Virus record (IMG/VR): IMGVR_UViG_3300013936_000014
DNA: 64,000 bases
Reading direction: 5' to 3' (one strand)
From: a virus
Lineage: Duplodnaviria > Caudoviricetes
The translations under genes were made by a program, and so were the position numbers. Of the stretch, positions 47,671 to 63,765 are shown in pieces (the stretch's first letter is position 1; every line of letters begins with the position of its first letter). The notes under the pieces were generated by a model that worked only from the letters and a program-made list of their open reading frames with translations, made no database searches and had not been told where the DNA came from.

Positions 47671-47924
47671 CATGCCCCCGGAAAACGCCCCGGGGGCTTT
47701 TCGGGCGGGCCGAACCGAAATCAGGGGCCGCGGGCCGCCGGAGGCCGCGCGCGAGGCGGGGGGCGGATGGGGCAGGGGCGACGGCAACGGCTGCGGCGAC
47801 GACTCGGGGGAGCAGCGGCGGCTGCGGCTGCGGCGGCAACTCGGGGGGCGGGGGAGACCAGTGAAAGGGAAATAAGAAAGAAATTATTTCTTTTAAAATG
47901 TAAATTAGGGTTTTCCTGGTTTAC

Positions 47925-47991
47925 CGTCGACTAGGCGACGTTAAACAGCCGTCAGGCCTAGTGCGTCCTTCCTTTTAAGGGAAGGGGTCGG
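47925..47991 (+). ncRNA. Pistol self-cleaving ribozyme
   Basis: P1 CGUCG/CGACG; loop ACUAGG pseudoknots with CCUAGU; UUAAACA linker; P2 CCG/CGG; GCG; P3 hairpin; GU cleavage site at 47987/47988. Confidence 0.88.
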
Positions 47992-48020
47992 ATCGTATAT
48001 CCGAGAAAGGAGATACTCTC

Positions 48021-48236
48021 ATGAAGTATCGTTTCATTTCGTTCCGCACTTACGGAACAGGCGTCGTTCAATACGACACAAAGGCATTCATGTCTGAAGA
48101 CATGGGTGCCTTGATCGAGGCCGTCTGCCAGGAGGCCCGAATCCTCTTGGCGAACGGCCACGACCGCATCACGGTCCACGAGACCTGCGATGCGGAGGAC
48201 GCGAAAAGATGGAATATTTCCATCTGCCGCGTCTAA
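48021..48236 (+). CDS. Hypothetical early protein
   Basis: AAAGGAG RBS; 71 aa. Confidence 0.7.
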   Translation: MKYRFISFRTYGTGVVQYDTKAFMSEDMGALIEAVCQEARILLANGHDRITVHETCDAEDAKRWNISICRV

Positions 48237-49152
48237 GCCGCAAGGCCCCTCTCTCAAAAGAGAGAGGATCGGTGCAAGCCCGATGCCCCGAAAGGGGTGG
48301 CGCTCATGGCCTATGACCATCGAGGTTGCTCTCGTTAAAAAGCTATGGCGCTTTCAGGCGCCAGCGTCGTGCGAATCTTGACGCACGATGGCTGGGCAAG
48401 ACGCTTGAAGGCAAATGCCAGCGGTGGCAAACTCACCATCGCCCAGACGGGGGTCATCCCCGAACGGTGCAAAGCAAATAACCTCGCTTTGCGTAGTAAA
48501 AAAGAGGTAGACGCCCCTGCTTCCGCGGATCATCCGCAGGCGGTTGGGAAACGCACAAAGGAAAGCCAGGACTCAGAGCCTGGCGGCCCGATAAGGGAAA
48601 AGATGGAGCGACTGCAATCCAGGCAGGAAATGGCTTGGACTAACGCGCAACAGCGGCGCGGCGGGAAAACGATACCACTGATTTGATGTGGCTGGGTGAG
48701 ACGCCTCTCTTCTATGTCCTTCGACCGACGATCGAGGGAATGCGGATGGAGGGATGGCGGAAGTACCTCTGCCTCCTCATGCACGTTTCATGAGGGGGTT
48801 GGCACAGAGGGAAAACAGTCGCACCTCAAGGTGGGAGCTCGGTTGCGAAGCAACCAGGTGCACGGCTCGAATGGGGGAGATTCCCCCGGGCCCGGGAACA
48901 AAAATGACATGATTCTGCGGTGTCTTGGGTAGGTTTGCGTCGAAAACCTATCTCCGCGACCCTCAATCGTGTCTCTAGTCAACTGGAGCATCCTCCCTCA
49001 CGATGGAGGGTAACGTCTGCTTCAACGTCGTCGTGAAGAGGCAGTGAGGCGGCATCACGCCAAGACCAGGAAAATGATGGCAGATATCGGACGCGAGGGC
49101 GCTAAGGCCACGACAACGTTCGCGTTCCGGACAAAACATAGTGGCACCGCCA
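48237..49152 (+). ncRNA. Large structured non-coding RNA candidate (~0.9 kb)
   Basis: No RBS-led ORF; more than 15 hairpins; long-range helices; ends at a terminator. Confidence 0.65.
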
Positions 49153-49180
49153 GGGGCTGTCTTCGGACAGCTCCTTTTTC
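49153..49180 (+). terminator. Intrinsic terminator
   Basis: GGGGCTGTC-TTCG-GACAGCTCC-TTTTT. Confidence 0.85.
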
Positions 49181-49240
49181 TTAATGCGGCAAGCTGGTCC
49201 CAAGCCCAGCGGAAGACGCAGAGGGAGAAAGGAGACTGAT

Positions 49241-49696
49241 ATGTCTCAAAACAGAAAAGCGGAAGCTCGCCTCATGTGCGACTATCCGATCTTCGGGACC
49301 GTCTCAGACGTGTCCCGAATGAGCACAGGCGTCGTCTACGTCCGCCCGTGCTACTTCAAAGCAGGCGTGGACAAGGAGGTCGCGATCTTCCTTCGCGACG
49401 CGAAGAAGGAGCGCTGGGCGACCAAAGAGAATCTGAAGGTCGGCACCAAGCTGACCTTCATGATCAGCATCGACCCATTCAAGGGGCCGATGGCGACGAG
49501 CCTCAGAACGGTGAATGCCGCGCCGAAGGACGCGTATTCCGAGCCTTACCGCCCGGACTGCATCCCGGATGCGAAAGGCTTCCGCCGCATCATCGAGGCG
49601 GCGAGAAGACGGGACATGAGGGCTTGCCGCGAAAAGCTGGCGGCCTCATCCGACCCCGTCGACAGGCTCTTGGCGGCCATCCTGCCACGAGACTGA
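49241..49696 (+). CDS. Hypothetical early protein
   Basis: AAAGGAG RBS. Confidence 0.65.
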   Translation: MSQNRKAEARLMCDYPIFGTVSDVSRMSTGVVYVRPCYFKAGVDKEVAIFLRDAKKERWATKENLKVGTKLTFMISIDPFKGPMATSLRTVNAAPKDAYSEPYRPDCIPDAKGFRRIIEAARRRDMRACREKLAASSDPVDRLLAAILPRD

Positions 49697-49793
49697 GACG
49701 AAAAACAACCTGGCGCCCGCCTCCGAGGCGCATTCTAAATATCGGGGCTTTGGCGGTTCGAAACCGCAACGACGGTTTGATTGAAAGGAGAAC

Positions 49794-50447
49794 ATGAGTA
49801 TGTCACAGAACCAAATCAAAAAAGTCAAGATCACCGATCTGGAAATCGGAACGGGAGTCGTCTACAAGGACAATGAGGGCAAATTCTTCCGTCTTTCTTG
49901 GGTGGAGGACAGCACCTCTCCCAGAGAGAGGGGGATAAGCGGAAGGCAATTGACCTTCTACACCTGGATCGAAGGGTATCGAAGCCCCGACGCCTGCAAC
50001 AAGACAATGAAGGAATTCTATGGTTCCTTCGGCGCCAAGAACACCGAAGAGCTCCTGGAGAACATGGACAAAAAAGGCTATTTCGTGAAGCCCGTCTATG
50101 CGATGATCCATTCGGGGATCTACTACTCCTTGAAAGACTTCCGCGATCCATATGACAGCGGATTGGCCGGATTCATCTTCGTGCCAAAGAAATGGATTGT
50201 GCACGAGTCCGAAGCCTCTTTCGAAGGGGTCGCCGAAATGGAGGTGAAAGAGTACAGCGCCTGGGCCAATGGCGAGGTGTGGGCCGTTGAACGCCTGGAC
50301 AAAGAAGGAAATGTCATCGATGGCTCCCACATTGTCTTCGGGGAGGGAGAGCTCGAAGACATAGACGACGCCCTCCGAGAAGCCATGATAGCCCCTCAAT
50401 GGGAATACGAGGTGGCGAAGGTGAAGACCTTCACCGTCTTGGAATAG
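49794..50447 (+). CDS. Hypothetical phage protein
   Basis: DSTSPRE, HSG, DSGLAGFI, WANGEVW pattern of a widespread phage family. Confidence 0.7.
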   Translation: MSMSQNQIKKVKITDLEIGTGVVYKDNEGKFFRLSWVEDSTSPRERGISGRQLTFYTWIEGYRSPDACNKTMKEFYGSFGAKNTEELLENMDKKGYFVKPVYAMIHSGIYYSLKDFRDPYDSGLAGFIFVPKKWIVHESEASFEGVAEMEVKEYSAWANGEVWAVERLDKEGNVIDGSHIVFGEGELEDIDDALREAMIAPQWEYEVAKVKTFTVLE

Positions 50448-50519
50448 CGTCCGAAAAAACAATTCCCTTTGCGGCGGGGTTATGCCGCAACGCCATTGAG
50501 GCAATAGGAGGAAACAAAA

Positions 50520-51155
50520 ATGCCAAATTATGTGAAAAATGCAATAACCTTCAAAACAACCGAAGGTTTGGAGAGATTCAAGAAGGCTTATATGCCGGAC
50601 GGAGAATTCTCCTTCAATTCCATAGACGAGATGCCCGCGTCTCTGGACATCGAAAGGGGCGGCAAAACGCTGCTTGCTTTCAAGATATACGTCACCAAGA
50701 ACCATATAGAAGGCGTCGAATATCCTTTGACTCTGGATTTGACCCCCGAAAAGCTCGAAGAGGTGTATTCTCACCTTTCCGAGAAAGAAAAGAAAGATTA
50801 CCTGAGACTCGGAGAGCAGATAGTCTCCAATCTCAGAGAATACGGCTGTGCCGACTGGTATGAGTGGAGGATTTCCCATTGGGGCACGAAATGGGACGCG
50901 AAAGAGGTTCAGATCGACGCGAAAACCCACTCGATCGTATTCCAGACGGCGTGGTCGGCTCCGATGCCGATCATAGAGAAGATCGCAAGGGAAATGAAAT
51001 CCCAATTCGCGTTCTCTTATGCAGATGAGGATATCGGCTATAATTGCGGAGTGTTCCTCTTTGGGGGAAAATACGGGTCCCAAGGATTCGGAGCGGAGAT
51101 GAGCGGGACGCCGGAAGGGAAGGAATTGGCCAAAAGACTATGGGACGCGGAATAG
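50520..51155 (+). CDS. DUF1281/YubB ferredoxin-like domain protein
   Basis: MPNYVKN, DWYEWRISHWGTKWD, FQTAWSAP, YADED. Confidence 0.75.
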   Translation: MPNYVKNAITFKTTEGLERFKKAYMPDGEFSFNSIDEMPASLDIERGGKTLLAFKIYVTKNHIEGVEYPLTLDLTPEKLEEVYSHLSEKEKKDYLRLGEQIVSNLREYGCADWYEWRISHWGTKWDAKEVQIDAKTHSIVFQTAWSAPMPIIEKIAREMKSQFAFSYADEDIGYNCGVFLFGGKYGSQGFGAEMSGTPEGKELAKRLWDAE

Positions 51156-51181
51156 CCGCGGCGAAAAAAAAGGAGGCAACC

Positions 51182-51292
51182 ATGAAAAACGAACAGAAAG
51201 TCTACGCAGAGATCTATTCTTACGGGGTTTCGGACCACATCGTATGGACAAAGTCCATAACATCTTCAATAAGAAGTACGACAGTCTTTTAA
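51182..51292 (+). pseudogene. 36-aa chimeric remnant of the duplicated 52009-53088 block
   Basis: 51194-51243 is identical to 52018-52067; 51243-51369 matches 52962-53088 with 3 mismatches. Confidence 0.85.
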
Positions 51293-51313
51293 ATTAAGGT
51301 CTGTTGTCAATTC

Positions 51314-51369
51314 CCGTCCCGAGCATGACGCTAAAAGGCTCTGGTTGGACTTCCATTAAAAGTCAACGA
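51314..51369 (+). repeat. Intergenic element type A (pseudoknot plus hairpin-CAACGA), copy 1
   Basis: CCGTCCCGAGCATGACGCTAAAAGGCTC...CAACGA. Confidence 0.9.
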
Positions 51370-51394
51370 TGTGTTCATTAGGAGGAAAACAAAA

Positions 51395-51991
51395 ATGGCT
51401 AACATTTGTTCAAACCAATACCGCTTCGTCTTCTCGACGGAAGAAGCGGCGAAGAAATTTGTCGAATTCGTAGAAAAGGAGACCGAAGAAAACTCTTCGG
51501 TTTATTTGCTCGGCATCAAAGCCGGCATCGCCGATGCGAATAACAGAGACGTTAGAGAATGGGAGGATACCGTGTCCTTCCGTTCTCCAGAAAACAAAAA
51601 AGAGGTGATGATTTACTCCGAGTCGAAATGGACGCCCTGTCCGAACGCTTGGAACGACATTGCGAAGACCTTCGACGAGAGGGTCGCAACATATTACGAG
51701 GCCGAAGAACCAGGATGCGGAATTTGGGCTTCTAATGACCCGGATTTCATTGGGAAATTTGTCGTCGATCCTTGTGTCGGGGAGGGATTCCCCGAAATTG
51801 ATAAACTCAATTATGGGGTTTACAACTACGAAGAAGTCGTGAAAATTCTTGATAGACTTCTAACAGGGAAAGGAGCCGGAATCCTTGATGATCTTGAGAC
51901 GTTGCTCTCGAAATTGAAGGCATCCAAGTACAAGGATGTTTTGTACGTTAATGAGATCATTGAGCAGCCACTCTCTAACTGGAAACAGTAA
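51395..51991 (+). CDS. Hypothetical protein (YubB-like)
   Basis: MANICSN, SESKWTP, YYEAEEPG. Confidence 0.65.
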   Translation: MANICSNQYRFVFSTEEAAKKFVEFVEKETEENSSVYLLGIKAGIADANNRDVREWEDTVSFRSPENKKEVMIYSESKWTPCPNAWNDIAKTFDERVATYYEAEEPGCGIWASNDPDFIGKFVVDPCVGEGFPEIDKLNYGVYNYEEVVKILDRLLTGKGAGILDDLETLLSKLKASKYKDVLYVNEIIEQPLSNWKQ

Positions 51992-52008
51992 GAAAAGGGG
52001 AATAGGAT

Positions 52009-52293
52009 ATGAAAAAGCAGAAAGTCTACGCAGAGATCTATTCTTACGGGGTTTCGGACCACATCGTGTGGTTCGACTCTCTGGAAGAGGCGGAAAAAGC
52101 GCTAGAAGAGCATATCGCCGCCATGCGGAAGGTCGGCGATTACGAGATCTTCAGAGATTCCGTTGCCGACGGGATCAAGATGACGGAGGGCGACATGTCC
52201 ATCACCATCTACATCCCATCGGGAAACGACGACGAGTGCGACCTTAACGTCGCCTTTGTCATCATCAGACCAATGAAAGGAGAAGGGAAATGA
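52009..52293 (+). CDS. Hypothetical protein
   Basis: ORF with RBS. Confidence 0.65.
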   Translation: MKKQKVYAEIYSYGVSDHIVWFDSLEEAEKALEEHIAAMRKVGDYEIFRDSVADGIKMTEGDMSITIYIPSGNDDECDLNVAFVIIRPMKGEGK

Positions 52294-52625
52294 AAACGTA
52301 TAATCTCAAAGTCGAAAAATGGAACATAGAAGAGGAGACGGGTTACAAACCGCTGTTCACCTTCTATGAGGATTTCTCCATCGCGGAGCCCTTCGGGGCT
52401 TCCGCCGTCGAGGAGACTTTCGATAGGATCTTCGAAGAGTGGAAAGGGGATCATAAAGCCCTGACCGAACTCGTGATGGCCCTCAATTGGAAAGTCTGGG
52501 TTCTTTTCGAAAGGGGGTCCAAACTGGCGGAAGTCTATTCCAGACTTTGGAATAAGGCGGACAGCTATGCCGTCTCTCACCTCAAAGGCGAGGAACTGTC
52601 GTACTTCTACAGGACGACAGACTGA
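52290..52625 (+). CDS. Hypothetical phage protein
   Basis: TFYEDFSIAE.FG, LTELVMALNWK, YFYRTTD. Confidence 0.7.
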   Translation: MKTYNLKVEKWNIEEETGYKPLFTFYEDFSIAEPFGASAVEETFDRIFEEWKGDHKALTELVMALNWKVWVLFERGSKLAEVYSRLWNKADSYAVSHLKGEELSYFYRTTD

Positions 52626-52633
52626 AAACGATC

Positions 52634-52687
52634 CGGGGAAGGAAAACCCCTCAAACCGCTTTGGGGATTCAGCTCAAATCCCAGCGA
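52634..52687 (+). repeat. Intergenic element type B, copy 1
   Basis: CGGGGAAGGAAAACCCC..AAACCGCTTTGGGG..hairpin..CAGCGA. Confidence 0.85.
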
Positions 52688-52716
52688 CATTGAAGCAATC
52701 ATAGGAGGAAAACGAA

Positions 52717-53016
52717 ATGAAAGACTTCAAGAAATTAGCCAAGCTCGTCAAGGAGCTCGACGCTCAGGACATCTGGGCCTACATGCTTGAGATCGCTACC
52801 GTCATCGACGGCAGAGGCGACCTCTCCGAAGGGCAGAAAGAGGATGCTTACTCTTTAGCGTCAACGGAATTCGAGAATTCCGAGGACAGCTCCATCGGCG
52901 CCAACGTCTTCGCCGAGGCGGCCATCGAAACCGTCTTGGATGAGGATTACGATGAGGATGATATGGACAAAGTCCATGACATCTTCAATGAGAAGTACGA
53001 CAGTCTTTTAAATTAA
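52717..53016 (+). CDS. Small acidic protein
   Basis: GGAGG RBS; D/E-rich. Confidence 0.7.
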   Translation: MKDFKKLAKLVKELDAQDIWAYMLEIATVIDGRGDLSEGQKEDAYSLASTEFENSEDSSIGANVFAEAAIETVLDEDYDEDDMDKVHDIFNEKYDSLLN

Positions 53017-53032
53017 GGTCTGTTGTCAATTC

Positions 53033-53088
53033 CCGTCCCGAGTATGACGCTAAAAGGCTCTGGTTGGACTTCCATTAAAAGTCAACGA
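53033..53088 (+). repeat. Intergenic element type A, copy 2
   Basis: As copy 1, with GAGT giving a U.G pair. Confidence 0.9.
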
Positions 53089-53111
53089 CGCGTGTTTTGA
53101 TAGGAGGAAAA

Positions 53112-53765
53112 ATGATCATGAAAAACACAATTCAACAAAATTTGGCCGCCGCGGCGGCAGCCAAGAAGGCAGAAGAAGCGGCAAGGAAAGCAAGGGCCGC
53201 AGAGGAGGCCGAACGAGCAAAAATCGAGGCTTTTGCCAAAGAACATGCCGATGTCGGCATTTCCACGATAAAAGGCATCATCGATGCCGCGAAGAAAGGA
53301 GAGCTCTTCTTCATCGCCATGGGAAAAGACGGCTTGGTCGCCGATTATGCGACCTCCGCGAAAGACGCCCAAAAACACGTTGAATGGATTTACAAATCCG
53401 CCCGTGAAAACAAGGAGGAATTGCTTCTCGATTCCTCAGCCATCATGGCCGGCATGATGGAAATGCAAAGAAAGTTCCAGATCGCGCATGACGCGATCGA
53501 AGCGGGGCTAATCCCAGAAGACGTCATCATCGACGAAGACAACGTCGAACACTGGGTGGCGGGCAACAGAGCCTACTCGACCGATGGGGTTGAGGAAGCA
53601 AACCTCGACGATATCGAGACGAGACTTTCTCTCAAAGACCGCAAAACGCTCCTCAAGGAGAGGATCAAAAAGTATCAGGAGCAATTGAAAGCTCTTGAGG
53701 AGGAAGAGGAGGGAGATGCAGACTCCTCTTGGGAGGAAGAAAACGACGGCGAAGAATATGAATGA
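53112..53765 (+). CDS. Hypothetical protein with acidic tail
   Basis: GGAGG RBS. Confidence 0.65.
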   Translation: MIMKNTIQQNLAAAAAAKKAEEAARKARAAEEAERAKIEAFAKEHADVGISTIKGIIDAAKKGELFFIAMGKDGLVADYATSAKDAQKHVEWIYKSARENKEELLLDSSAIMAGMMEMQRKFQIAHDAIEAGLIPEDVIIDEDNVEHWVAGNRAYSTDGVEEANLDDIETRLSLKDRKTLLKERIKKYQEQLKALEEEEEGDADSSWEEENDGEEYE

Positions 53766-53783
53766 TAAAACTTTGATTGCTTT

Positions 53784-53836
53784 CGGGGAAGGAAACCCTC
53801 CAAACCGCTTTTGGGGTTCAGCTCAAATCCCAACGA
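53784..53836 (+). repeat. Intergenic element type B, copy 2
   Basis: CGGGGAAGGAAACCC..AAACCGCTTTTGGGG..CAACGA. Confidence 0.85.
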
Positions 53837-53864
53837 AATTTTTCAAGAAAAGGAGAAAAATGAA

Positions 53865-56198
53865 ATGAGTTTTCTGAAAGAAACCAAATATGACGCAGGT
53901 CAGATCAGAAAAGACCTCACCTGGGAAGAAGCCAAGAAATTGCCTCTGTACATCAGCACCCCGAAAGGGAACGTCTGGGAAGGAGACAGAAAGGTCTCTT
54001 CGGAGGAGATCAGCGCCGGCAACTGCTACATAGCGAACGTCAGCGGCAAAGACATCCTCCTTTATTTCTTCGAGAAGGGGGAGTTCAATGGGATGAAAGG
54101 GGTCAGGCTCCATCTCATAAGGAAACGCCTGTCAAAGGCAAAATCCAAAGAGGAAATCTCCGTCGACGCGACCGGAGCGGAGCCGAATTGGATTTTCATA
54201 ACGCCCGATTGGAAGGCTTATGACAAGCAAGGGGAGCCCATATCCGCAAAGAGCCACTCGTACGGACGTGGCACGGGCTTTGGGTATTATGAGATTTCCG
54301 ATTGGAGGAAATATTCCCATGACCTCAGGATAACCGGCGAATTCAAAGAAACCCCTTATAACGAAAAGTCCGAGTGGCTGTCCCCGGCCAGCGTGGAGAT
54401 CCTGAAGGAAGCCGGATTCGACATGGAGACGAGGCCGGTTTCAAACTGGGAATTGCGGTGCGACTATTGCACTGAGGCTCCGGACGATTCCTACTCAATA
54501 GAATGGTTCGTGGGGAATCTCCTTCACCCCAACCGGATAAACCGAAGAAAGAAGATGTGCGCTTCTTTGCTTCACGACTATCGCTTCTATGATTCTTTTC
54601 TCGGAGGAAGGATATTCGGGATCCTAACGGAGAACGACCAAGCATACGGTGTCTTTCACTTGTTAAAAGAAGTATATAAATCGAATGCAATAATCGTATT
54701 CTCTTTGAAGATGCAGGGAAAGAAAGACATCCCGCCTTTTCTGGTCACGGAGAAAGGAAGCAAGACCATCTCTTCCGAGTTCATGCTCGAAAGCATGAAG
54801 GTGAGACCTTGCTGGTTCTCAAATTCGGAAAATTTGACCGCGGAGGAAATCTTGAAAGAGCTCGTCTCTCATGAAAGCTCCTTGGAACGAACGGAGGTCT
54901 TCAAGAATCTAATTCCTTTGCTGAAAGAGACTTTGAAAGAAATCTCCGTGAAAGGAGAACCTTCTTTCGACGCGATATGCAATCTGCTCTATCTTTTGAC
55001 CCCCAATGGGCAAAAAGACAGGGTTTTTGAAGAGACGCTGAAAGAAAACGGATTCGAAGAGGCGATGTCTGCCTCAGATTTCTTGGGGAAGATAGCTTGG
55101 AATTTGCCGCCCAATCTCAAAAAGAAAACCCCTTATTCTCAGGTGGGCTTGCCCAAAAAGATGTATTACGAGCTGAAGCGGCTGCCAAGAGGAAAAGGGG
55201 AAACGATAAATCTCGGTGGTATAATTCAGGCCATTTCCCCACGTTCTGACAGGGTGTCGTGCACAAATTCAAAAGAGAGAAAGGAGGCATACAAACCTTT
55301 TTTGGATTTCTGCTCCCATGCGGATCCGGCATTTCTGGACGCTTTCGCGGAATTCTCCGCGAGAGTCAAACAGATTGGAGGGAGATTCATGGGCAGGGAA
55401 GATTGGGCCACCATGTTCAGTCTGGGCGGAGGAGACCCCGCATCTCCGGTATCAGCCAAAATCAAGACTCTCGGCAGATCGATAAGGAAGATGCCCTCAG
55501 ACAATAGCAACCTGAAAGGCCTGCTGGACTATGAATGGGCCGATTACTACAGGCAGATAGAGGAGCTATCCCCCCTTGGGCTTGACTGGCCAAAGAGATA
55601 CGAGGCTTTCTCTTCCAAAAACGTCGCCTACTTCCTGAAGACCGTCAAAAGACGCTTCCCATCAATAGTGGACAACTCATACGCTTTGACAGAGAATGAC
55701 TTAATGTCGGCTCCTCTGGAGAAGAAAATGACGATGTTGCATGCGCTGCAGAATCTCATCTCCTCGGAAAACGAGCTGGAAATCGAGAAGGCGGAAATAG
55801 CGGGGCTGGACAACAAGTATGCACCATGGAGGGCGCAGCTTGCAAAATCCCTGTCCTGGAAAGGCAAAGATCTGGAGATCATCATCCCGGAAAGCCTGGC
55901 CGAACTTACCAGGGAAGGGCGGCTTCTCTGCCACTGCGTCGGCAGCTACAAGCAAGATGTCGCCGCCGGGAAAGAGGGCATCCTCTTTCTGAGAAAGCTG
56001 TCTTCGCCCCAAACCCCCTTCTTCACGATAGACGTGGTGAAAAAGGATGGGAAGTTCTCGGTGAGGCAGTGCCATGGGAAATGCAACAGCAATCCCACAC
56101 CGGAAATCGTGGAGGCCCTGAAACAATGGGCAAAAGCCACCGGGAAGATCGATGAGAGCTCAATCTCTTCGGCCTACAGGGCCCTCTGCCATCTGTGA
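53865..56198 (+). CDS. PcfJ-like domain protein
   Basis: C-terminal IIPESLAELTREGRLLCHCVGSY...ILFLRK...PFFTIDV...QCHG. Confidence 0.8.
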   Translation: MSFLKETKYDAGQIRKDLTWEEAKKLPLYISTPKGNVWEGDRKVSSEEISAGNCYIANVSGKDILLYFFEKGEFNGMKGVRLHLIRKRLSKAKSKEEISVDATGAEPNWIFITPDWKAYDKQGEPISAKSHSYGRGTGFGYYEISDWRKYSHDLRITGEFKETPYNEKSEWLSPASVEILKEAGFDMETRPVSNWELRCDYCTEAPDDSYSIEWFVGNLLHPNRINRRKKMCASLLHDYRFYDSFLGGRIFGILTENDQAYGVFHLLKEVYKSNAIIVFSLKMQGKKDIPPFLVTEKGSKTISSEFMLESMKVRPCWFSNSENLTAEEILKELVSHESSLERTEVFKNLIPLLKETLKEISVKGEPSFDAICNLLYLLTPNGQKDRVFEETLKENGFEEAMSASDFLGKIAWNLPPNLKKKTPYSQVGLPKKMYYELKRLPRGKGETINLGGIIQAISPRSDRVSCTNSKERKEAYKPFLDFCSHADPAFLDAFAEFSARVKQIGGRFMGREDWATMFSLGGGDPASPVSAKIKTLGRSIRKMPSDNSNLKGLLDYEWADYYRQIEELSPLGLDWPKRYEAFSSKNVAYFLKTVKRRFPSIVDNSYALTENDLMSAPLEKKMTMLHALQNLISSENELEIEKAEIAGLDNKYAPWRAQLAKSLSWKGKDLEIIIPESLAELTREGRLLCHCVGSYKQDVAAGKEGILFLRKLSSPQTPFFTIDVVKKDGKFSVRQCHGKCNSNPTPEIVEALKQWAKATGKIDESSISSAYRALCHL

Positions 56199-56202
56199 TA
56201 CC

Positions 56203-56255
56203 ATGTCCTGAGCATGACGTTAAAAGGCTCGGCTTTGCAGGCCTCAATGCAACGA
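56203..56255 (+). repeat. Intergenic element type A, copy 3
   Basis: ATGTCCTGAGCATGACGTTAAAAGGCTC...TGCAACGA. Confidence 0.88.
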
Positions 56256-56282
56256 TGTGTTAAACGAAAGGAGAAAATAGCT

Positions 56283-57029: not shown

Positions 57030-57043
57030 AGGAGGAAAAGAAA

Positions 57044-57289
57044 ATGAAGCGTCAAATTAGGAAGGTCTTCCGCACCGAAAAGATGCAGAGACTCGCCCAA
57101 GAAGTAGTCGACAGAATCGACTATTCTGCAGAGGAACTCAGCGACTCTCTCGTTGAGGCCCTTGATGCTGCCGTCACGTGGAATGAGGATAAGTGGGCGG
57201 TTGTCGCCTACTACAGCCTCCCCGAGAAACCGTTGCCTTATGATAAGGCGGCTTGCAGATTCTTGGAAGACCTCACGAACTGCGTCTGA
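57044..57289 (+). CDS. Hypothetical protein
   Basis: GGAGG RBS. Confidence 0.65.
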   Translation: MKRQIRKVFRTEKMQRLAQEVVDRIDYSAEELSDSLVEALDAAVTWNEDKWAVVAYYSLPEKPLPYDKAACRFLEDLTNCV

Positions 57290-57294
57290 AAGAC

Positions 57295-57344
57295 CCGTCC
57301 CGAGCATGACGTTAAAAGGCTCGGCTTGCGGCCTACCGCAACGA
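57295..57344 (+). repeat. Intergenic element type A, copy 4
   Basis: Core plus TTGCGG-ccta-CCGCAACGA. Confidence 0.9.
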
Positions 57345-57374
57345 CGTGGTAATATATCAAAGGAGGAAAATGAT

Positions 57375-57950: not shown

Positions 57951-57965
57951 AAGGAGGTGAGAGCC

Positions 57966-58367
57966 ATGACACTGACCTATTGGTTCGGCAAGGACAACGA
58001 CGTCGAGTTCGAATACGAGGTCGACGAGAGATACGCGGATTATCTCGCGGATTATCTCGAAAACGAATATTCGAGCGTCGAGGAGGCCGTCAAAGACATC
58101 TACAAAGACGTGGACGACGAGGAAGAGGAGCAGGAGGCGCTCAAGTGCGAAAGCCTGAGCGACCTCGCGAGCTTCATCCGCGAGAGAGACGAATCCTGGG
58201 CCGAGGACATAGTCTGCAGAGATGGGAGCTACGTCGACTATCTCGAAGAGACCCTCAAAGACAAATACGAAGACGAGGCCAGCGAAGCGTTCGACGACGA
58301 GAACGACGGCTGCGACCCGGACGGCTTTTATGGCTGGGACGATTACTGGCATTGGAAGAACGGCTAA
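57966..58367 (+). CDS. Highly acidic small protein
   Basis: AAGGAGGTG RBS; very D/E-rich. Confidence 0.7.
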   Translation: MTLTYWFGKDNDVEFEYEVDERYADYLADYLENEYSSVEEAVKDIYKDVDDEEEEQEALKCESLSDLASFIRERDESWAEDIVCRDGSYVDYLEETLKDKYEDEASEAFDDENDGCDPDGFYGWDDYWHWKNG

Positions 58368-58373
58368 GCGCGT

Positions 58374-58427
58374 CGGGGAAGGAAAACCCTATAAACCGCT
58401 TTTGGAGTTCGGCTCAAACCCCAACGA
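58374..58427 (+). repeat. Intergenic element type B, copy 3
   Basis: CGGGGAAGGAAAACCC..AAACCGCTTTTGG..CCAACGA. Confidence 0.85.
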
Positions 58428-58454
58428 TCTCGCGCATTTGGGAGGAAAAATGAA

Positions 58455-58844
58455 ATGGCGACATTCAGAATCAAAGCCACCGCGACGGTGGAAATCGAAA
58501 AAGAGATAGAGGCCTCATCGAAAGAAGAGGCCAGAAAGCTCTTCTTTGACAACGGCTTCTCCGACATCGTCGAAGAAGCCGACTCGGCATCCGTGGAGGA
58601 CATCGACGTCGACGAGGTGGACATGGTCAGCATGAGATACGTGGTCAAGGCGTACGACATCAGGTATTTCCTCGATGATGAGGAGCCAAGGAAGAATCTT
58701 CCGACGGAACTCATCCTGGAGATCGACTCCGACGGGGAGAAAGAAGACGTCGATTTCGACGGCCTCGTCGGCGACGCGATCGAGGACAGGATCGGATACG
58801 AGCCCGTCAAAGACTTCAAATACCGCGTAATCGAGGCAAAATGA
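58455..58844 (+). CDS. Acidic hypothetical protein
   Basis: GGAGG RBS. Confidence 0.65.
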   Translation: MATFRIKATATVEIEKEIEASSKEEARKLFFDNGFSDIVEEADSASVEDIDVDEVDMVSMRYVVKAYDIRYFLDDEEPRKNLPTELILEIDSDGEKEDVDFDGLVGDAIEDRIGYEPVKDFKYRVIEAK

Positions 58845-58901
58845 CGCAAACCGTCCCGAGCATGACGCTAAAAGGCTCCTTTTGCGCAAGTTGCGCAACG
58901 A
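58845..58901 (+). repeat. Intergenic element type A, copy 5 (57 bp identical to copy 6)
   Basis: Direct comparison. Confidence 0.92.
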
Positions 58902-58924
58902 TGCTGAGAAATCACAGGAGGAAA

Positions 58925-59833
58925 ATGAAAATGAAAGATTTCAGCAAATTAAGCAGAGGAGAGAAAGCCTTTGCGATGAATGAGGTCATCGAAAGCCTCA
59001 ACGTCGAGACGGCATACTATTCCGATTGGCTCAACGAATGGCCGGACGGGGCCACCATTGAAGAGGCAAAAGACGATTTCGACATTCATGCCTCGGACTC
59101 GAAAGAGGACCGGGACTCCAAGGAAAGCCTTTGGGAAACCCTGGAAAGAAAATTCCGGATCAGAGTCGAGATGTTCGGATGCGAGGATGGCCGCTCCATC
59201 CAAGAGGAGGACGTCGTCGGGCTCTGGGTCCCGAAAACCAAGAATCCGGAGTATGAGGAAGATGAGAGGGGAGGAGGCTTCGCCATCCTTAAAGGCGAGG
59301 AAGGAAAGCTCAATAGGGTGAGAAAGACCCTCGAGGAGCTTGGATATCCCCTTACCCCGACGGAAGAAGGAAAGAATTACTATTCCTTCTTCGTGGACTG
59401 GAGGAAATGGAGGCTGCAGAAAGCGGTCTCCTTCATCCTCAAGTCGGCAGAGTGGCTTAGTCAAGAGGAATGCGGGTGTTGCACCATCCGCCTGACGAAG
59501 AACACCCAGCTTGCCGTTGGATGGGCGAACGGCTTCGATCCCGACGACAAAACGATCATACATTCCAAAACACAGCCCGAATGGGCGATCGCCGTGGCGG
59601 TCAAATCCCTCAAGGGCGACGACTTGAAGACGGATCTCGAATGGCTCACGACGCCATATGTGGCCGAAGGCGAGGATGAGGGCCTGGTGTTCTCCCAGCT
59701 GGAATGGACGCTGAGCCCGACGGGCACGGAGGATGACGCGAGAAGGGCGTTCTCCTACCTGATGTCTCAGCTGGACGGCATCATCAAGGGATACCGCCTG
59801 ATGGCTGACGGCAGATGCCTGCTCCGCAAATAG
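58925..59833 (+). CDS. Hypothetical protein
   Basis: GGAGG RBS; flanked by identical 57-bp repeats. Confidence 0.65.
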   Translation: MKMKDFSKLSRGEKAFAMNEVIESLNVETAYYSDWLNEWPDGATIEEAKDDFDIHASDSKEDRDSKESLWETLERKFRIRVEMFGCEDGRSIQEEDVVGLWVPKTKNPEYEEDERGGGFAILKGEEGKLNRVRKTLEELGYPLTPTEEGKNYYSFFVDWRKWRLQKAVSFILKSAEWLSQEECGCCTIRLTKNTQLAVGWANGFDPDDKTIIHSKTQPEWAIAVAVKSLKGDDLKTDLEWLTTPYVAEGEDEGLVFSQLEWTLSPTGTEDDARRAFSYLMSQLDGIIKGYRLMADGRCLLRK

Positions 59834-59834
59834 C

Positions 59835-59891
59835 CGCAAACCGTCCCGAGCATGACGCTAAAAGGCTCCTTTTGCGCAAGTTGCGCAACGA
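59835..59891 (+). repeat. Intergenic element type A, copy 6
   Basis: Identical to 58845-58901. Confidence 0.92.
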
Positions 59892-59917
59892 CTTGCTTGT
59901 ATAAGGAGGTAAAATAT

Positions 59918-60490
59918 ATGAAATACATATACAGCAAAGAAAAAATCGATGCAGCCATGAAGCGTCTCAGAAGGTTCCGCACCTTTAAAGCCTATATCAG
60001 CGAGCATTTCGCCGGCGGAAAGGATACCGTCATCGAAGTCTGTGGGATAGACGACGACAGAAAGGAGGGCTGGGAAAAGATCGATAAAGTTAACAAAATC
60101 CTTTCGGATCTTTTGGGCGAAGACGCCTATCTCGAATGCCACGACCATTGCTGCCACTATTGCTACATCGGAACGGATGAGCGGGCCGAAAAGGGAAGCG
60201 AGCACGACCCCATCCGGCTGAATGGGGGCAACCTGGAAGACTATCCCAACAAAATCATCTATCAGGTCCAGCAGCTCTGGAAGCAGCTTGCGGAGAACAA
60301 AGGAGACGAAGGGACCTGCGTCCTTGGGGAGAAATTGAATTTCTCCTACCAAGGGAAGCATTACTCCATGATCCCTTTGGATAGATGCCAGGGAAGCCTC
60401 TCGAGGGAATCGTACCTCAAGACAATCGAATCCCTTTTGGAATCGATCGGATGCGGCGATCTCCGCTTCGATTGGGGGATCATGGATTAG
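59918..60490 (+). CDS. Hypothetical protein
   Basis: AAGGAGG RBS. Confidence 0.65.
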   Translation: MKYIYSKEKIDAAMKRLRRFRTFKAYISEHFAGGKDTVIEVCGIDDDRKEGWEKIDKVNKILSDLLGEDAYLECHDHCCHYCYIGTDERAEKGSEHDPIRLNGGNLEDYPNKIIYQVQQLWKQLAENKGDEGTCVLGEKLNFSYQGKHYSMIPLDRCQGSLSRESYLKTIESLLESIGCGDLRFDWGIMD

Positions 60491-60599
60491 GAAGCGAGGC
60501 AAAACGCGCGTCTCCACAAATCGAAATGTCGTTAAACTTCTCTTTTCGGGCTTCAGTCAAAGCCAACGATATGCTATAATGTTCAAGGAGGCAAATGTT

Positions 60600-61073
60600 A
60601 TGAACGAACAGCAAATCAACAAAATCCTGGAAGGAATCCATTGCGGTTCCTTCACCAAGGTGGTCTATAAGACCGCCCTTCACGCCAACAAAGACCACAA
60701 AGGCGTGGAAGTCGTCAAACTGGTCAAGGCGATCGTCCGTTTTGGGGTAGAATACTCCAAAATGGCCTCCGTCAGGCAAAAGGCTGCCCAAAAAGCCGCG
60801 CTCGGCTTGGCGGTCGACACCCACAAGCTCCCATGGGGAAGCTGGAAGAACAGATTCCTCATCGAGAACAAAGGGCAGCTTTACATCCGCCTTACGTGCC
60901 CGAAGAACAATGTCTCTTTGAGACCGGTCGTCATTGGGTATTACGCCGATGGGAGAGAAATTTCCAGAGCAGAGGCTGAAAAGATGACCCGTCCATCTGA
61001 CTGGGACCAAAAAGACGAGGCCCTCGACGTCTACACCAAGAGAATCGAGGACATCGTCTCGATCGGCGAATAG
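60600..61073 (+). CDS. Hypothetical basic phage protein
   Basis: AAGGAGG RBS; LPWGSW motif. Confidence 0.65.
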   Translation: MNEQQINKILEGIHCGSFTKVVYKTALHANKDHKGVEVVKLVKAIVRFGVEYSKMASVRQKAAQKAALGLAVDTHKLPWGSWKNRFLIENKGQLYIRLTCPKNNVSLRPVVIGYYADGREISRAEAEKMTRPSDWDQKDEALDVYTKRIEDIVSIGE

Positions 61074-61079
61074 GCGATT

Positions 61080-61134
61080 CCGTCCCGAGCATGACGCTAA
61101 AAGGCTCTGATTTGACTTTCAACAAAGTCAACGA
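61080..61134 (+). repeat. Intergenic element type A, copy 7
   Basis: Core plus TTGACTTT-caac-AAAGTCAACGA. Confidence 0.9.
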
Positions 61135-61161
61135 TTTTCGCAACACAGGGAGGAAAATGCC

Positions 61162-61743
61162 ATGAGCACCAGAAGCTTAATTGCAAAACAAACGAAAGAT
61201 GGGAGGTATAAAGCCATCTATTGCCATTTCGATGGCTACGTGTCGGGGGTCGGCGTGACCCTTGACGCCAACTATGACACCGAGGAAAAAGTCGATGAGC
61301 TGATTTCTTTGGGAGATATCTCCGCCCTTATGGGGACCATCGAGAAAACGAGGGGAAAAGCCTATAAAGAAGGCCATCAGAGGATCTATGCCAAGCATGA
61401 TTTGGAAAATCTTCAGGGAAGCGGGATAGAGTACGTCTACCTGTATGTCAGCAACGGATTGTGGAACGTCTACGATGTCTACGGAGGCTATTGGGACCTG
61501 CTTCCGAATCTGCTTAAGGAACAGGGGCTACAATCCAAGTTCGCGGAGAGGTGGGACGCCAATCTCGGAAACATCGAGAAAGGCGACGCCTACATGCAGA
61601 TGAGGAGGGCTGAGGAAGAAGGCAAGCTCGCCGACCTCCTCATGGACGCTTTGGACTCGCTGAGCGAGGAGGATTACGAATCCTTCAGAAAAAGATGGTC
61701 CGAGGTCTGGGCATCCCACGTCTTCTACAAAAAAGAAGGATAG
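61162..61743 (+). CDS. Conserved hypothetical phage protein
   Basis: MSTRSLI...IYCHFDGY..GVG. Confidence 0.7.
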   Translation: MSTRSLIAKQTKDGRYKAIYCHFDGYVSGVGVTLDANYDTEEKVDELISLGDISALMGTIEKTRGKAYKEGHQRIYAKHDLENLQGSGIEYVYLYVSNGLWNVYDVYGGYWDLLPNLLKEQGLQSKFAERWDANLGNIEKGDAYMQMRRAEEEGKLADLLMDALDSLSEEDYESFRKRWSEVWASHVFYKKEG

Positions 61744-61760
61744 CGCAAATCCGGCAACCA

Positions 61761-61811
61761 TGGAAGGAAAACCACCCAAACCCTCCTGCGGCAGGAAGTC
61801 GGCCGCAACGA
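61761..61811 (+). repeat. Intergenic element type B variant
   Basis: TGG-AAGGAAAA-CCA (covariant stem)..AAACC..TGCGGC..GCCGCAACGA. Confidence 0.7.
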
Positions 61812-61842
61812 CCTTTGTTTGATCTGAAAGGAGAAATTGACA

Positions 61843-62763
61843 ATGTCAGCAAACCAAAGCAAAAAGACCGAAGCCCTTTACAGCTTCGCCGACAAAGACG
61901 TCGCGGGGCTTCACGTCCACATCTCTTCCGGAAACGGGAAGATCGGCCACATCTGGAACGTCTCGACCGTTCCGGGGGACGCCCTCAACGCGCCAACCGT
62001 CAGCCGCGACGGCAAACAGACGCGCATCACCGACGTCGCCGGCACCTGCGGAGGCGTCTGCAAGGACTGCCATAATTTCTGCTACGCCTTCGACTCGATG
62101 CGCCAGCACCACAATGCCTGCGCCCCCGCGTGGAGCGAGAACACCCTCGTCTACCGCAAGGACGTCGACCGCTTCATGAAGGAGATCGACGACGCCATCA
62201 CGGCGAAGAACTCCAGACCCCGCGGCAAGAAGGTCGAGGAGTTCCGCATCAATGTCTCGGGGGAGCTCGAGTCCTATCGCTCGCTCCTTCTCTGGATAAA
62301 GCTCGCCGAGAGGCATCCGGAGACCCGCTTCGGCATCTACACCAAGAGATTCTCCTGGGTCGTGGACTATCTCAAGGCGAACGCCAAGTTCCCGGCGAAC
62401 TTCTTCATCAACGCGTCCGAATGGAACCACAACATCGACCATCTCAAGCCGATGATCGAGGGCAGGACCAACATCTTCGCCTACTGCGATTCCCTCGCCG
62501 AGGCGCAGGAATACCTCGATAAGGGGTACAGGATGTGCAGGGCGATCGATCATCGCGGCTGCCACACCGGCGTGAAGTGCGACGAATGCGGCTATTGCTA
62601 CGGCCGCTACGGCATCATCAACGTCTTCGTCCTCGATCACAGCGCCGCCGGCCGCGTGCGCTTGGCGAAAGAGGCAAAGGAGCTTAAGGCGAACGGAAAG
62701 CTCGACGCCGTCATCAAGCGTCTCGAAGACGCCCAGGCCGTCGAAGGAAAGGAGGCCAAATAA
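61843..62763 (+). CDS. Gp88-like (radical-SAM-related) protein
   Basis: GNGKIG, TC..C..C...CYA, FRINVSGE, YTKR, C-terminal CDECGYC. Confidence 0.7.
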   Translation: MSANQSKKTEALYSFADKDVAGLHVHISSGNGKIGHIWNVSTVPGDALNAPTVSRDGKQTRITDVAGTCGGVCKDCHNFCYAFDSMRQHHNACAPAWSENTLVYRKDVDRFMKEIDDAITAKNSRPRGKKVEEFRINVSGELESYRSLLLWIKLAERHPETRFGIYTKRFSWVVDYLKANAKFPANFFINASEWNHNIDHLKPMIEGRTNIFAYCDSLAEAQEYLDKGYRMCRAIDHRGCHTGVKCDECGYCYGRYGIINVFVLDHSAAGRVRLAKEAKELKANGKLDAVIKRLEDAQAVEGKEAK

Positions 62764-63341
62764 TGACTCTCGCGGAATTCGACGTGATGATGGCGGAAGC
62801 CCTCACGCGCATCGGGATGAACGTCCCGTCCCTCAGACATCGCTACGCGCCTCTCGGCTCATGGGAGGCGAACGCCGTCAGGAACCACTCCCTGATAGCG
62901 ACCCGCGGGCCCGCCAGCGTCGCGATCGACCTCGAAAAGGTAATCGAATCCGGCGAGGATACCGGGGCATTGCTTCCGTCGTACCTGAAGTCCATAGCGA
63001 CCAACCTTCGCCGCATGCGCGAGTTCGGCGACGACGGCAACCGCCCCCTCCGAATGCCGAAATCGATCCCCGAAGAGGCGGTCCGCTCCTACGCCGCCCA
63101 TCTTGACCGATACGGCAGCACCGTCTGCAGACACGAGTATCTGGAGAGATTCGGCGCAGACGGGATCCGCGAGGCGCTGGCCGACCATGGATGCGAAGTT
63201 CGCGTCGATGTGCTCGAAAACCATTTCGAACCCATGACGATGACGAATTACGAATGCGACGGGGGCGGCTATTCGCGCGTCGTCGCGATTCAGCCGACCG
63301 TCAGGCTGACCCTGTTGAGGAAGGGGGGCAAAAACAGATGA
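62763..63341 (+). CDS. Hypothetical protein
   Basis: Coupled TAATG start. Confidence 0.6.
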   Translation: MTLAEFDVMMAEALTRIGMNVPSLRHRYAPLGSWEANAVRNHSLIATRGPASVAIDLEKVIESGEDTGALLPSYLKSIATNLRRMREFGDDGNRPLRMPKSIPEEAVRSYAAHLDRYGSTVCRHEYLERFGADGIREALADHGCEVRVDVLENHFEPMTMTNYECDGGGYSRVVAIQPTVRLTLLRKGGKNR

Positions 63342-63353
63342 GACCCGGAAGAG

Positions 63354-63380
63354 AAAGGCGCCTTGTGCGCCTTTTTTCTT
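63354..63380 (+). terminator. Intrinsic terminator
   Basis: AAAGGCGC-cttgt-GCGCCTTTTTT. Confidence 0.8.
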
Positions 63381-63414
63381 CTTGGTTTTCATATATAGGA
63401 AAGGAGGTGGTTCT

Positions 63415-63567
63415 GTGAATCGCAAACGCGTCTTCGTTTTGACTCTTTGGCTGATTCTACTGACGATGACCATAGCCGCATTGGCTATGGGGGTGAAACC
63501 AGAATATCTCGTCGGGGAATTCCTGGGACTCGCGTCGCCGCTCATCGTCTATCTTGTCTCGAGATAG
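63415..63567 (+). CDS. Small two-TM membrane peptide (50 aa)
   Basis: AAAGGAGGTG RBS; GTG start. Confidence 0.6.
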   Translation: MNRKRVFVLTLWLILLTMTIAALAMGVKPEYLVGEFLGLASPLIVYLVSR

Positions 63568-63622
63568 CGTCTGAGCGGCGACGGCATCGTTCCCCGAAAC
63601 AAAAAGAAAGGAGGTGAGCCAT

Positions 63623-63706
63623 ATGGGATTAGCCATTCTTCCGATTGCGCTTGTTGCCCTGATGATCTGGGCCCTTTGGGCCGTCAACCATCCGGACGGC
63701 AGGTAG
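63623..63706 (+). CDS. 27-aa hydrophobic peptide MGLAILPIALVALMIWALWAVNHPDGR
   Basis: AAAGGAGGTG RBS; manual translation. Confidence 0.6.
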   Translation: MGLAILPIALVALMIWALWAVNHPDGR

Positions 63707-63765
63707 CGGCTTTTTTGGGGGGCGAAAGCCCCCAACGACCCATTCCAAGAAAGGAGGTGACGAAT

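Follow-up and report, generated by a model that had tools for sequence, protein, structure and literature searches.

Introduction

The early mRNA of phage T7 carries intercistronic RNase III sites, which are interrupted double helices of ~20 bp, and is thereby resolved into stable monocistronic mRNAs. The subject of the present work is a 64,000-nt stretch of phage DNA (IMG/VR record IMGVR_UViG_3300013936_000014, Caudoviricetes), referred to as the window, whose plus strand carries between 47.9 and 63.8 kb a gene array with three ribozyme motifs, a large structured RNA and 15 structured leaders, most of which end in the hexamer CAACGA. Relatives of the window are designated L (loci) and G (phage records). 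Like T7 early mRNA, the array features repeated structured elements between the cistrons of what would be one long phage transcript, here assumed to be early, that would yield stable monocistronic mRNAs. Unlike those of T7, the stems of the leaders comprise 4-9 bp or belong to pseudoknots, and three boundaries are occupied by predicted self-cleaving ribozymes. An identity of the leaders with T7-type RNase III sites, which feature about two helix turns and an internal loop, was rejected on the grounds of this stem length.

A second point of reference is tRNA punctuation. tRNA-like elements are classical substrates of RNase P and RNase Z, and examples of punctuation or of tRNA-like folds are provided by mitochondrial transcripts, the mascRNA of MALAT1 and the 3' tRNA-like structure of turnip yellow mosaic virus (TYMV) with its acceptor pseudoknot. 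The array shares with these systems a tail that reads AACGA where tRNAs have AACCA, a T-loop-like loop in its first leader and, in the related record G008, elements composed of acceptor stem and T-arm in the same slots. It departs from them in that no complete tRNA-like fold was detected in the window leaders; the resemblance to TYMV would be one of layout.

With respect to the ribozymes, clusters of different self-cleaving classes in phage-like DNA were reportedly described by Weinberg et al. in 2015. Both the clustering of ribozyme classes in phage-like DNA and a proposed function in the processing of polycistronic mRNA are on record (PMC6765202), which narrows the statement of an earlier note on this DNA that the combination of elements is undescribed. 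The arrangement goes further than these precedents, since the positions of the ribozymes are resolved with respect to open reading frames (ORFs) and Shine-Dalgarno (SD) sequences, are conserved throughout a clade, bracket a large non-coding RNA (ncRNA) and are continued by a series of cassettes that are not ribozymes.

GOLLD and ROOL are large, ornate ncRNAs associated with phages. The large RNA of the array resembles them as a phage-borne, highly structured RNA in the range of 600-900 nt with a conserved core and variable peripheral hairpins, but it is devoid of an Rfam match, and its two flanking ribozymes would confer 5'-OH and 2',3'-cyclic phosphate ends. The leaders, in turn, are comparable to the PeSL cassettes of T4-type phages, which are likewise short, repeated, located upstream of small accessory ORFs and used as recombination joints (PMC2839356, PMC4122927). 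PeSL elements combine a terminator-like stem-loop with a sigma-70 early promoter, whereas the leaders lack a U-run and promoter hexamers and carry RNA pseudoknots instead.

Organisation of the array

The interpretation favoured here, the chances of which are judged to be about even, is that the array constitutes one transcript punctuated by RNA modules for processing and stability, which also act as recombination joints. It is favoured because different elements share the same slots, selection is evident at the RNA level, an invariant tail keeps a fixed spacing to the SD sequence, promoter-like sites are missing from the leaders and terminators are few. Accordingly worded as a mechanism, one or a few long plus-strand RNAs would start at an AT-rich site near 47900 and would be divided into defined units by the RNA elements at the gene boundaries.

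Upstream of the array, a terminator (47646-47665) closes the operon of a phage RNA polymerase and is followed by a GC-rich spacer, an AT-rich island (47870-47920, plus strand) and the array itself. The island, a candidate for the single promoter of the array, contains AATGTAAATTA at 47897-47907; the whole window features only this copy, and the equivalent place in the relative L138 has it too. From this sequence context, we infer that the site is the promoter of the array. A sigma-70 consensus scan of the window retrieved TTGACA-17-CATAAT at 46752 and no sigma-70-like site at any of the 15 leaders, in agreement with the earlier note, which had contrasted the leaders with 46752 in this regard. 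Strong terminator-like hairpins are limited to two within the array, one at 49152 and one at 63351-63377 (plus strand), downstream of the gene at 62763-63341.

No close relatives of the window were found in INPHARED, nor via a 777-aa protein in IMG/VR. A clade of relatives with 50-99% nucleotide identity was recovered by a metagenome scan for the type A pseudoknot (see below) followed by CAACGA and by look-ups of homologues of a 151-aa protein. Members of this clade that cover the region share the 71-aa ORF, the twister-sister ribozyme, the large RNA, a gene of 148-151 aa and the CAACGA leaders, with exceptions for single elements that are given below. At least 12 CAACGA leaders per ~13 kb are present on the coding strand, as counted in L163-L165. 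The phage itself or close relatives are contained in the assemblies ERZ808266, ERZ808246 and ERZ1026876.

Ribozymes and the large structured RNA

The first three boundaries of the array each carry a ribozyme motif, all on one strand, within 1.3 kb and beside phage genes, with the next SD sequence ~12-30 nt downstream. The pistol ribozyme with which the array was said to open is retrieved at 47925-47992 (plus strand; RF02679, 67.1 bits with the gathering score at 34.5), and a twister-sister and a twister-like motif were found in addition. The full-length pistol alignment comprises P1, P2, P3, the loop pseudoknot and the G-U junction, and an own pistol model (R1) assigns 80.8 bits to this element. 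Self-cleavage is predicted from the sequence at the G-U junction, between G47987 and U47988, 33 nt upstream of the start of the 71-aa ORF, and would trim the 5' end of the array transcript. The predicted new 5' end, UCGGAUcguauAUCCGA (47988-48020), can fold a terminal hairpin of 6 bp just upstream of the SD sequence, similar to the hairpin that is added to synthetic ribozyme insulators. Homologous pistols precede the 71-aa ORF in L167 and L168 and are also present in G002 and G008.

The SD-led 71-aa ORF (48021-48236, plus strand) forms a 'mini-mRNA' between two ribozymes. In L138 and L163-L168, the ORF is retained together with its neighbours; it was not called in L169. No Pfam, PHROG or atlas family was matched by its product, which also showed no convincing homology to the products of the small inter-ribozyme ORFs of G002 and G008. 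Its stop codon is overlapped by the twister-sister ribozyme (48233-48316, plus strand; RF02681, 56.7 bits against a gathering score of 34), with a predicted cut between C48305 and A48306. This ribozyme is retained in L138, L163, L165, L166, L167 and L169, with compensatory changes of two stems in L138, and a search for its core in L168 found none. In L163, two near-identical twister-sisters are present (480-559 and 2405-2482), the second of which follows an extra 153-aa gene.

The third motif is a twister-like ribozyme of type P1 (49178-49229, plus strand; 43.3 bits, E 1e-8 locally) with a predicted cut between U49182 and A49183. It scores below the gathering threshold of RF03160 (clan CL00120; 67.2 bits) because an optional 21-nt stem is missing; its core (UAA, GC.GC, GGUCCCAAGCCC, GC.GAGGG) is complete, and P1 and P2 are paired. 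The motif is 90-100% conserved in L138, L155, L161 and L168, with a compensatory change from G:C to A:U in P2 of L138 and L155, and no twister core motif was found upstream of the 150-aa gene of L163. In the window, its 3' strand extends into the SD sequence of the gene at 49241-49696 (plus strand). This first gene after the twister encodes a 151-aa protein and is the hallmark of the clade, with homologues in 60 metagenomic clusters at 62-99% identity. No family was found for the protein among Pfam and PDB profiles. An atlas lead with a high score had pointed to a cold-shock-domain RNA binder; this assignment was dropped as unsupported, with no match to a Pfam or PDB profile and an AlphaFold2 pLDDT of 51.

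Between the predicted cuts of twister-sister and twister lies a large structured ncRNA of ~877 nt (48306-49182, plus strand), in keeping with the ~0.9-kb structured RNA proposed earlier. Its folding energy deviates from that of shuffled sequences by z = -5.75, it holds no SD-led ORF, and a covariance-model scan over 40000-64000 at E<5 gave no Rfam match, GOLLD and ROOL included. Compared with L138, blocks of ~100% identity are found along with insertions of 20 and 36 nt, which are themselves hairpins at the tips of hairpins, and the indels break any reading frame. Of 150 predicted pairs, 19 are compensatory and none is broken in this comparison. In a four-sequence alignment reaching down to 50% identity, 42 compensatory pairs are unbroken and 73 pairs contain a broken cell, partly through alignment error. 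Sequence matches to the large RNA are found in L138, L163/4 and L165/6, and a gap of similar length is present in L167 and L168. Its 3' end is formed by a terminator-like hairpin with a U-run (49152-49175, plus strand), which abuts the twister and is replaced in L138 and L155 by a hairpin of other sequence. In L138 (ERZ1026876.12, 2400-3500), a 320-aa ORF is inserted between this terminal hairpin and the twister, and either side of the insertion carries a copy of the 'hairpin-UCUUCUUAA' boundary.

In the proposed mechanism, twister-sister and twister would together release the 71-aa mini-mRNA and the ~877-nt RNA, with ends consisting of 5'-OH and 2',3'-cyclic phosphate.

The CAACGA leaders

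Downstream of the ribozymes, there are 23 gene boundaries, 15 of which feature a leader of 70-110 nt between the stop codon and a strong SD sequence, so that the number of ~15 given in the earlier note stands; the others are tight junctions of at most 26 nt. The combination of hairpin, CAACGA and SD sequence is confined to the plus-strand array and precedes none of the minus-strand genes. CAACGA is exact in the tail of 13 leaders and replaced by CAACGC and CAGCGA in one leader each, and the distance from CGA to the SD sequence amounts to 10-16 nt. The hexamer is present in 55 copies in the window, as compared to 34 +/- 6 expected.

The 3' module of the leaders is always a hairpin of 4-9 bp, usually of the form UUG...CAA, followed by single-stranded CGA; its pairing is maintained even though the sequence is wholly different between copies. 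The 5' module is variable: seven copies are of type A (CGUC-C(N5)AU-GACG-YUAAAAG-N'4-5), four are of type B, characterised by the GGGGAAGGAAAACCCC hairpin, and the others are unique. All leaders lie on the plus strand, and the position of the hexamer is given with each. Type A is represented by leader 3 (51293-51394; 51364), which contains a second hairpin or pseudoknot, leader 5 (53017-53111; 53083), a near-duplicate of leader 3 with the upstream ORF end included, leader 7 (56199-56282; 56250), which forms one side of a recombinant junction in L161, leader 8 (57290-57374; 57339), leader 10 (58845-58924; 58896), whose triplet pair CUU/AAG gives way to CCA/UGG or CCC/GGG in comparable leaders of relatives, leader 11 (59834-59917; 59886), near-identical to leader 10, and leader 13 (61074-61161; 61129). 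Type B comprises leader 4 (52626-52716), in which a further hairpin and the variant CAGCGA (52682) follow, leader 6 (53766-53864; 53831), leader 9 (58368-58454; 58422) and the type B-like leader 14 (61744-61842; 61806). Leader 1 (49697-49793; 49767) consists of a pseudoknot and a hairpin with the T-loop-like loop UUCGAAA, and its orthologue lies at 4541 in L138. Leader 2 (50448-50519) is a compact pseudoknot, termed type D (CCC...UUGCGGC..GGGG..GCCGCAA), that ends in CAACGC (50488) and recurs as a type in L138, L150, L153 and L155. Leader 12 (60491-60599; 60564) has a divergent upstream fold before its hairpin. Leader 15 (63703-63765), upstream of a small membrane-like ORF, is composed of the hairpin UUGGGGGGC-GAAA-GCCCCCAA and CGA (63733), and its orthologues in L150 and L157 differ in their stem sequences.

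In many leaders, base pairing is possible between the 3 nt just upstream of the stem and the first loop nucleotides, yielding a small H-type pseudoknot. Similar leaders of relatives show this helix as CUU/AAG, CCA/UGG or CCC/GGG, or else as UGG/CCA or UGA/UCA, and these compensatory triplets tend to favour the putative 3-bp helix. Throughout the clade, 76 of 190 SD-led plus-strand ORFs are preceded by CAACGA, which in 62 of the 76 cases is located 9-16 nt from the SD sequence; the next base is never G. The hexamer remains invariant while the identity of its flanks falls to 65-75%.

Type D follows the layout CCC-UU-UGCGG-..-GGG-YAAUG-CCGCA-ACGA, which appears to resemble that of the acceptor pseudoknot of TYMV with its terminal ACCA. 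Literature string searches with the pseudoknot sequence and with the TYMV pseudoknot sequence returned unrelated matches only, and a search of IMG/VR with the type B leader pattern yielded chance matches only. Known self-cleaving or recombination elements were considered as well. Pistol models did not match the leaders (Rfam at E<5; own model R1 at E<=1), which contain no P2 strand between linker and pseudoknot. By visual inspection, a hammerhead was rejected for want of the CUGANGA...GAAA core, an HDV-like ribozyme because the CUUUUAA partner for the linker is found in leaders 3 and 5 only, and an integron attC site because the TTG...CAA arms have a polarity opposite to AAC...GTT.

The type A pseudoknot in other phages

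More than 100 phage contigs that are unrelated in other respects (IMG/VR, L026-L124) harbour the 27-nt type A pseudoknot (GUCC-N7-GACG-YUAAAAG-N4). The underlying search pattern, GTCC-N7-GACGYTAAAAG, leaves the pseudoknot helix free and retrieved at least 103 stretches. Among the 116 matches listed, the four central pairs form in 81, as opposed to ~2% expected by chance according to our own arithmetic. In a 107-row alignment, the helix shows strong covariation: double-change cells number 115, as compared to 31.7 in shuffles, and none of 500 shuffles reached 115. G-U combinations outnumber A-C combinations on the sense strand by 59 to 5, and this excess implies that the fold exists in RNA of that orientation. 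Together with the compensatory pairing of the leaders, these data bear out the earlier view of the leaders as elements acting at the RNA level.

In other phages, type A is located 3-10 nt upstream of tRNA genes or within tRNA arrays, 10-15 nt upstream of SD sequences, and within longer leaders of GP20-type scaffold genes, e.g. in Lactobacillus phage CV244; in these scaffold leaders it often lies downstream of a terminator and is followed by UAUUUUUUAUG. Examples are L069:9562-9595, L049:4907-4940 and L125:2501-2539. With respect to a location at transcript starts, a -10-like TANNNT was found 3 nt upstream in 11 of 75 copies, and no consistent promoter emerged.

Covariance-model scans did not find type A in Rfam. 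It resembles the pistol ribozyme in P1, an A-rich linker and a loop pseudoknot (CGUC-CNNNNAU-GACG-YUAAAAG-N'N'N'N' in type A; CGUCG-ACUAGG-CGACG-UUAAACA in the window pistol), but it is devoid of P2 and of the G-U cleavage junction and obtains no score from pistol models. A pistol-core-like pseudoknot in phage T4 is of comparable layout but other sequence. Similarly, it shares the layout GuC..G.CgUAAAAg with GP20-b (RF03003), and many copies precede GP20-type scaffold genes; with 11.8 bits in the window, type A falls short of the gathering score (36.2 bits). Of five other phage records, G003 gave 11.5-14.2 bits with the GP20-b model and the other four gave no match.

Conservation and exchange of the elements among relatives

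The earlier note had proposed co-occurrence of pistol, ncRNA and leaders in related phage genomes as a check. Within the clade, the 71-aa ORF, the twister-sister, the large RNA and the leaders do travel together, but the pistol is inconstant, being confined to the window, L167 and L168 and absent from L138, L165 and L169. The twister is found in the window, L138, L155, L161 and L168. More distantly related phages that share the RNA polymerase have neither the ncRNA nor the leaders. G002, the RNA polymerase of which is 58% identical, features a pistol, two ORFs and a twister followed by tightly packed genes, with neither a large RNA nor leaders, and CAACGA is enriched neither in G002 nor in G001.

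A different set of devices is present in G008 (IMGVR_UViG_3300043754_000046, L134), which has a near-identical pistol and the same genome type as the window. Three pistols lie in series between ORFs of 63-70 aa (2528-3159), and the subsequent region (3700-17900) carries leaders with a T-arm-like hairpin, 17 on the plus strand and none on the minus strand. A covarying acceptor-like stem of 5-7 bp that is followed by 'AC' closes 15 of the 16 T-arm hairpins analysed (4-8 in controls). ARAGORN calls none of these acceptor and T-arm elements a tRNA, and CAACGA is missing from the G008 leaders. The occupation of these slots by three pistols and by tRNA-like elements points towards processing.

The leaders are also sites of genome rearrangement. 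In L161, which is 90-96% identical to the window, a hybrid leader takes its upstream half from leader 5 and its downstream half from leader 7, joined within the 26-nt type A pseudoknot, and the genes at 53112-56198 are missing at this junction. Elsewhere in relatives, the same pseudoknot-hairpin is followed by a new spacer and gene right after CAACGA. The repetition of the cassettes thus provides crossover points at which genes are shuffled between related phages, a kind of modular shuffling that PeSL cassettes mediate in T4-type phages (PMC2839356, PMC4122927). Within the window, duplications of leaders extend to the 3' end of the ORF before them, at ~95% identity over ~110 nt (51182-51394 and 52900-53111; 58845-58924 and 59834-59917), which indicates recent intragenomic spread or gene conversion.

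Possible functions of the leaders

With regard to the punctuated transcript favoured above, the 15 leaders would serve as signals for both endonucleolytic processing and stability. Cleavage at the CGA tail or in its vicinity would furnish the upstream RNA with a compact 3'-terminal fold that would block 3' exonucleases, and would at the same time provide the downstream mRNA with a short 5' leader and a strong SD sequence, thereby protecting it. As candidate for the cutting enzyme, host RNase Z might act after the 'discriminator' A, i.e. between A and CGA, and/or RNase P might be involved, with the module imitating an acceptor arm; RNase Y/E-type cleavage or self-cleavage would be alternatives. 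The leading guess, drawn by analogy, thus takes the CAACGA modules for mimics of the tRNA acceptor arm that would be cleaved by RNase P or RNase Z. The tRNA-processing enzymes are preferred because the slots of G008 are tRNA-like, the loop of leader 1 is T-loop-like, the tail reads AACGA and never CCA, and the layout appears TYMV-like.

A more far-reaching version joins three propositions and is doubtful as a whole: the CAACGA modules, and perhaps type A, would be a new cutting signal, either as acceptor-arm mimics that recruit RNase P or RNase Z or as a small self-cleaving class; abundant phages of one clade would employ ribozymes, tRNA-like elements and pseudoknots interchangeably as the punctuation of a 16-kb transcript; and two devices would release an ornate RNA of ~880 nt with ligatable ends, for which circularisation would be possible.

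Several observations weigh against the punctuated transcript and its processing. Window leaders other than leader 1 are devoid of a T-arm; T-arm-like hairpins number three on the plus and four on the minus strand of the window, the UUCGAAA loop being present in leader 1 only, and neither ARAGORN nor Rfam detects anything tRNA-like in the window leaders. A genome-wide control lent no clear backing to the 3-bp helix of the CAACGA pseudoknot, with 30 of 52 cases compared with 7-26 in controls. Moreover, G001, whose RNA polymerase is 67% identical, has plain sigma-70 promoters in its intergenic gaps, and type A elsewhere often follows a terminator or precedes a U-run, which pure processing leaves unexplained.

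Instead of being cut, the leaders could be translational operators, in which case one regulator, either an early or late phage protein or a host factor, would bind the hairpin and (A)ACGA ~12 nt upstream of the SD sequence and thus switch a whole set of genes on or off, comparable to RegA of phage T4, which regulates many early mRNAs. An invariant single-stranded hexamer beside a variable stem, 9-16 nt from the SD sequence, does correspond to the anatomy of a protein operator, and the element is confined to genes of the array. The single shared regulator considered in the earlier note did not come to light, though: family searches identified no binding protein among the array proteins, which lack informative families, and the cold-shock lead failed. 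The note's other proposal, regulation by base pairing of the large RNA, finds no footing either, since a UCGUUG complement to CAACGA is present neither in the large RNA nor in the 71-aa mini-mRNA. As the ribozymes and the tRNA-like elements of G008 that occupy the same slots are cleavage devices, operators appear unlikely.

Hairpin and CAACGA could also act as DNA, namely as a promoter for a phage RNA polymerase, be it the YonO-like enzyme encoded at 41603-44976 or a virion enzyme reported for another part of the genome, so that every gene or gene pair would have a primary transcript of its own starting just after CGA. Hairpin promoters are known from phage N4. The presence of a two-barrel RNA polymerase in the window, the fixed SD distance together with the missing sigma-70 sites, and the ordinary promoters in the equivalent gaps of G001 fit this notion, and the small number of C.A mismatches found at the base of the stem would correspond to G.T on the opposite strand. 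On the other hand, the polymerases of G001 and G002 are 58-67% identical and CAACGA is nevertheless not enriched there, the G008 leaders are likewise devoid of it, and G-U is tolerated on the sense strand, as exemplified by the U.G pair that closes the stem of the CAGCGA variant. The length of the stem and the size of the loop (3-14 nt) vary widely, unlike in N4-type promoters, and type A is an RNA motif in many phages of other types. Such a promoter function is therefore rated as quite improbable.

Alternatively, the cassettes might matter mainly as DNA, being PeSL-like recombination linkers with incidental or mildly stabilising RNA folds. The exact crossover inside type A and the swaps at CAACGA between near-identical phages, the near-identical leader copies within the genome with flanking ORF ends included, and the like behaviour of PeSL cassettes in T4-type phages (PMC2839356, PMC4122927) would suit such linkers. 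But compensatory changes and an invariant single-stranded tail reveal selection on RNA, which recombination alone does not need, and this renders a function purely as linkers very improbable. The slightest chance of all is given to cis-acting antitermination or anti-Rho elements, reloaded along the operon after the model of HK022 put RNA: they would suit a 16-kb unit almost without terminators, and the occurrence of type A just after terminators and before tRNA arrays and mRNAs elsewhere hints at a target more general than translation, but there is nothing to antiterminate within the array, the elements are very short and without similarity to known antiterminator RNAs of Rfam, and their ribozyme and tRNA-like analogues speak for cutting.

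Other features of the window

The genes for terminase, portal and exonuclease are encoded on the minus strand within 1-40 kb. Scattered among the structural genes are three paralogous genes for HNH homing endonucleases of ~600 aa (phrog_3339; 15557-17380, 23576-25393 and 30284-32029, minus strand). A protein with an Mtd_N (major tropism determinant) domain, a tyrosine integrase and four collagen-repeat proteins, encoded on the minus strand at 648-1766, 6727-7737 and 11322-15015, hint at a variable receptor-binding region. Two minus-strand ORFs, 3394-4404 and 4568-5926, share between them the anaerobic ribonucleotide reductase NrdD and cover profile positions 2-250 and 263-560; the gap of ~160 nt possibly represents another intron or an insertion. 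The two-barrel YonO-like RNA polymerase gene occupies 41603-44976 on the plus strand (PF05183, phrog_8308). A candidate group I intron within it (43276-43630; RF00028, 27.5 bits, E 0.002, under the gathering score) separates the ORFs 41603-43318 and 43663-44976, which correspond to the N- and C-terminal parts of one PHROG (8308).

Implications

The locus bears on the function that pistol, twister-sister and most bacterial twisters have in nature, as these ribozymes are placed here exactly at cistron boundaries of a phage operon, are conserved in a clade and have tRNA-like elements as their counterparts in a relative. The idea of ribozyme-based processing of polycistronic phage mRNA thereby becomes directly testable. 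In addition, the array adds three uncatalogued RNA families, namely the ~880-nt structured RNA between two ribozymes, the CAACGA leader and the compact type A pseudoknot. If the leaders were indeed cut by tRNA-processing enzymes, they would offer compact natural insulator parts for synthetic operons and, with respect to the phages themselves, would constitute a bacterial-virus version of tRNA punctuation.

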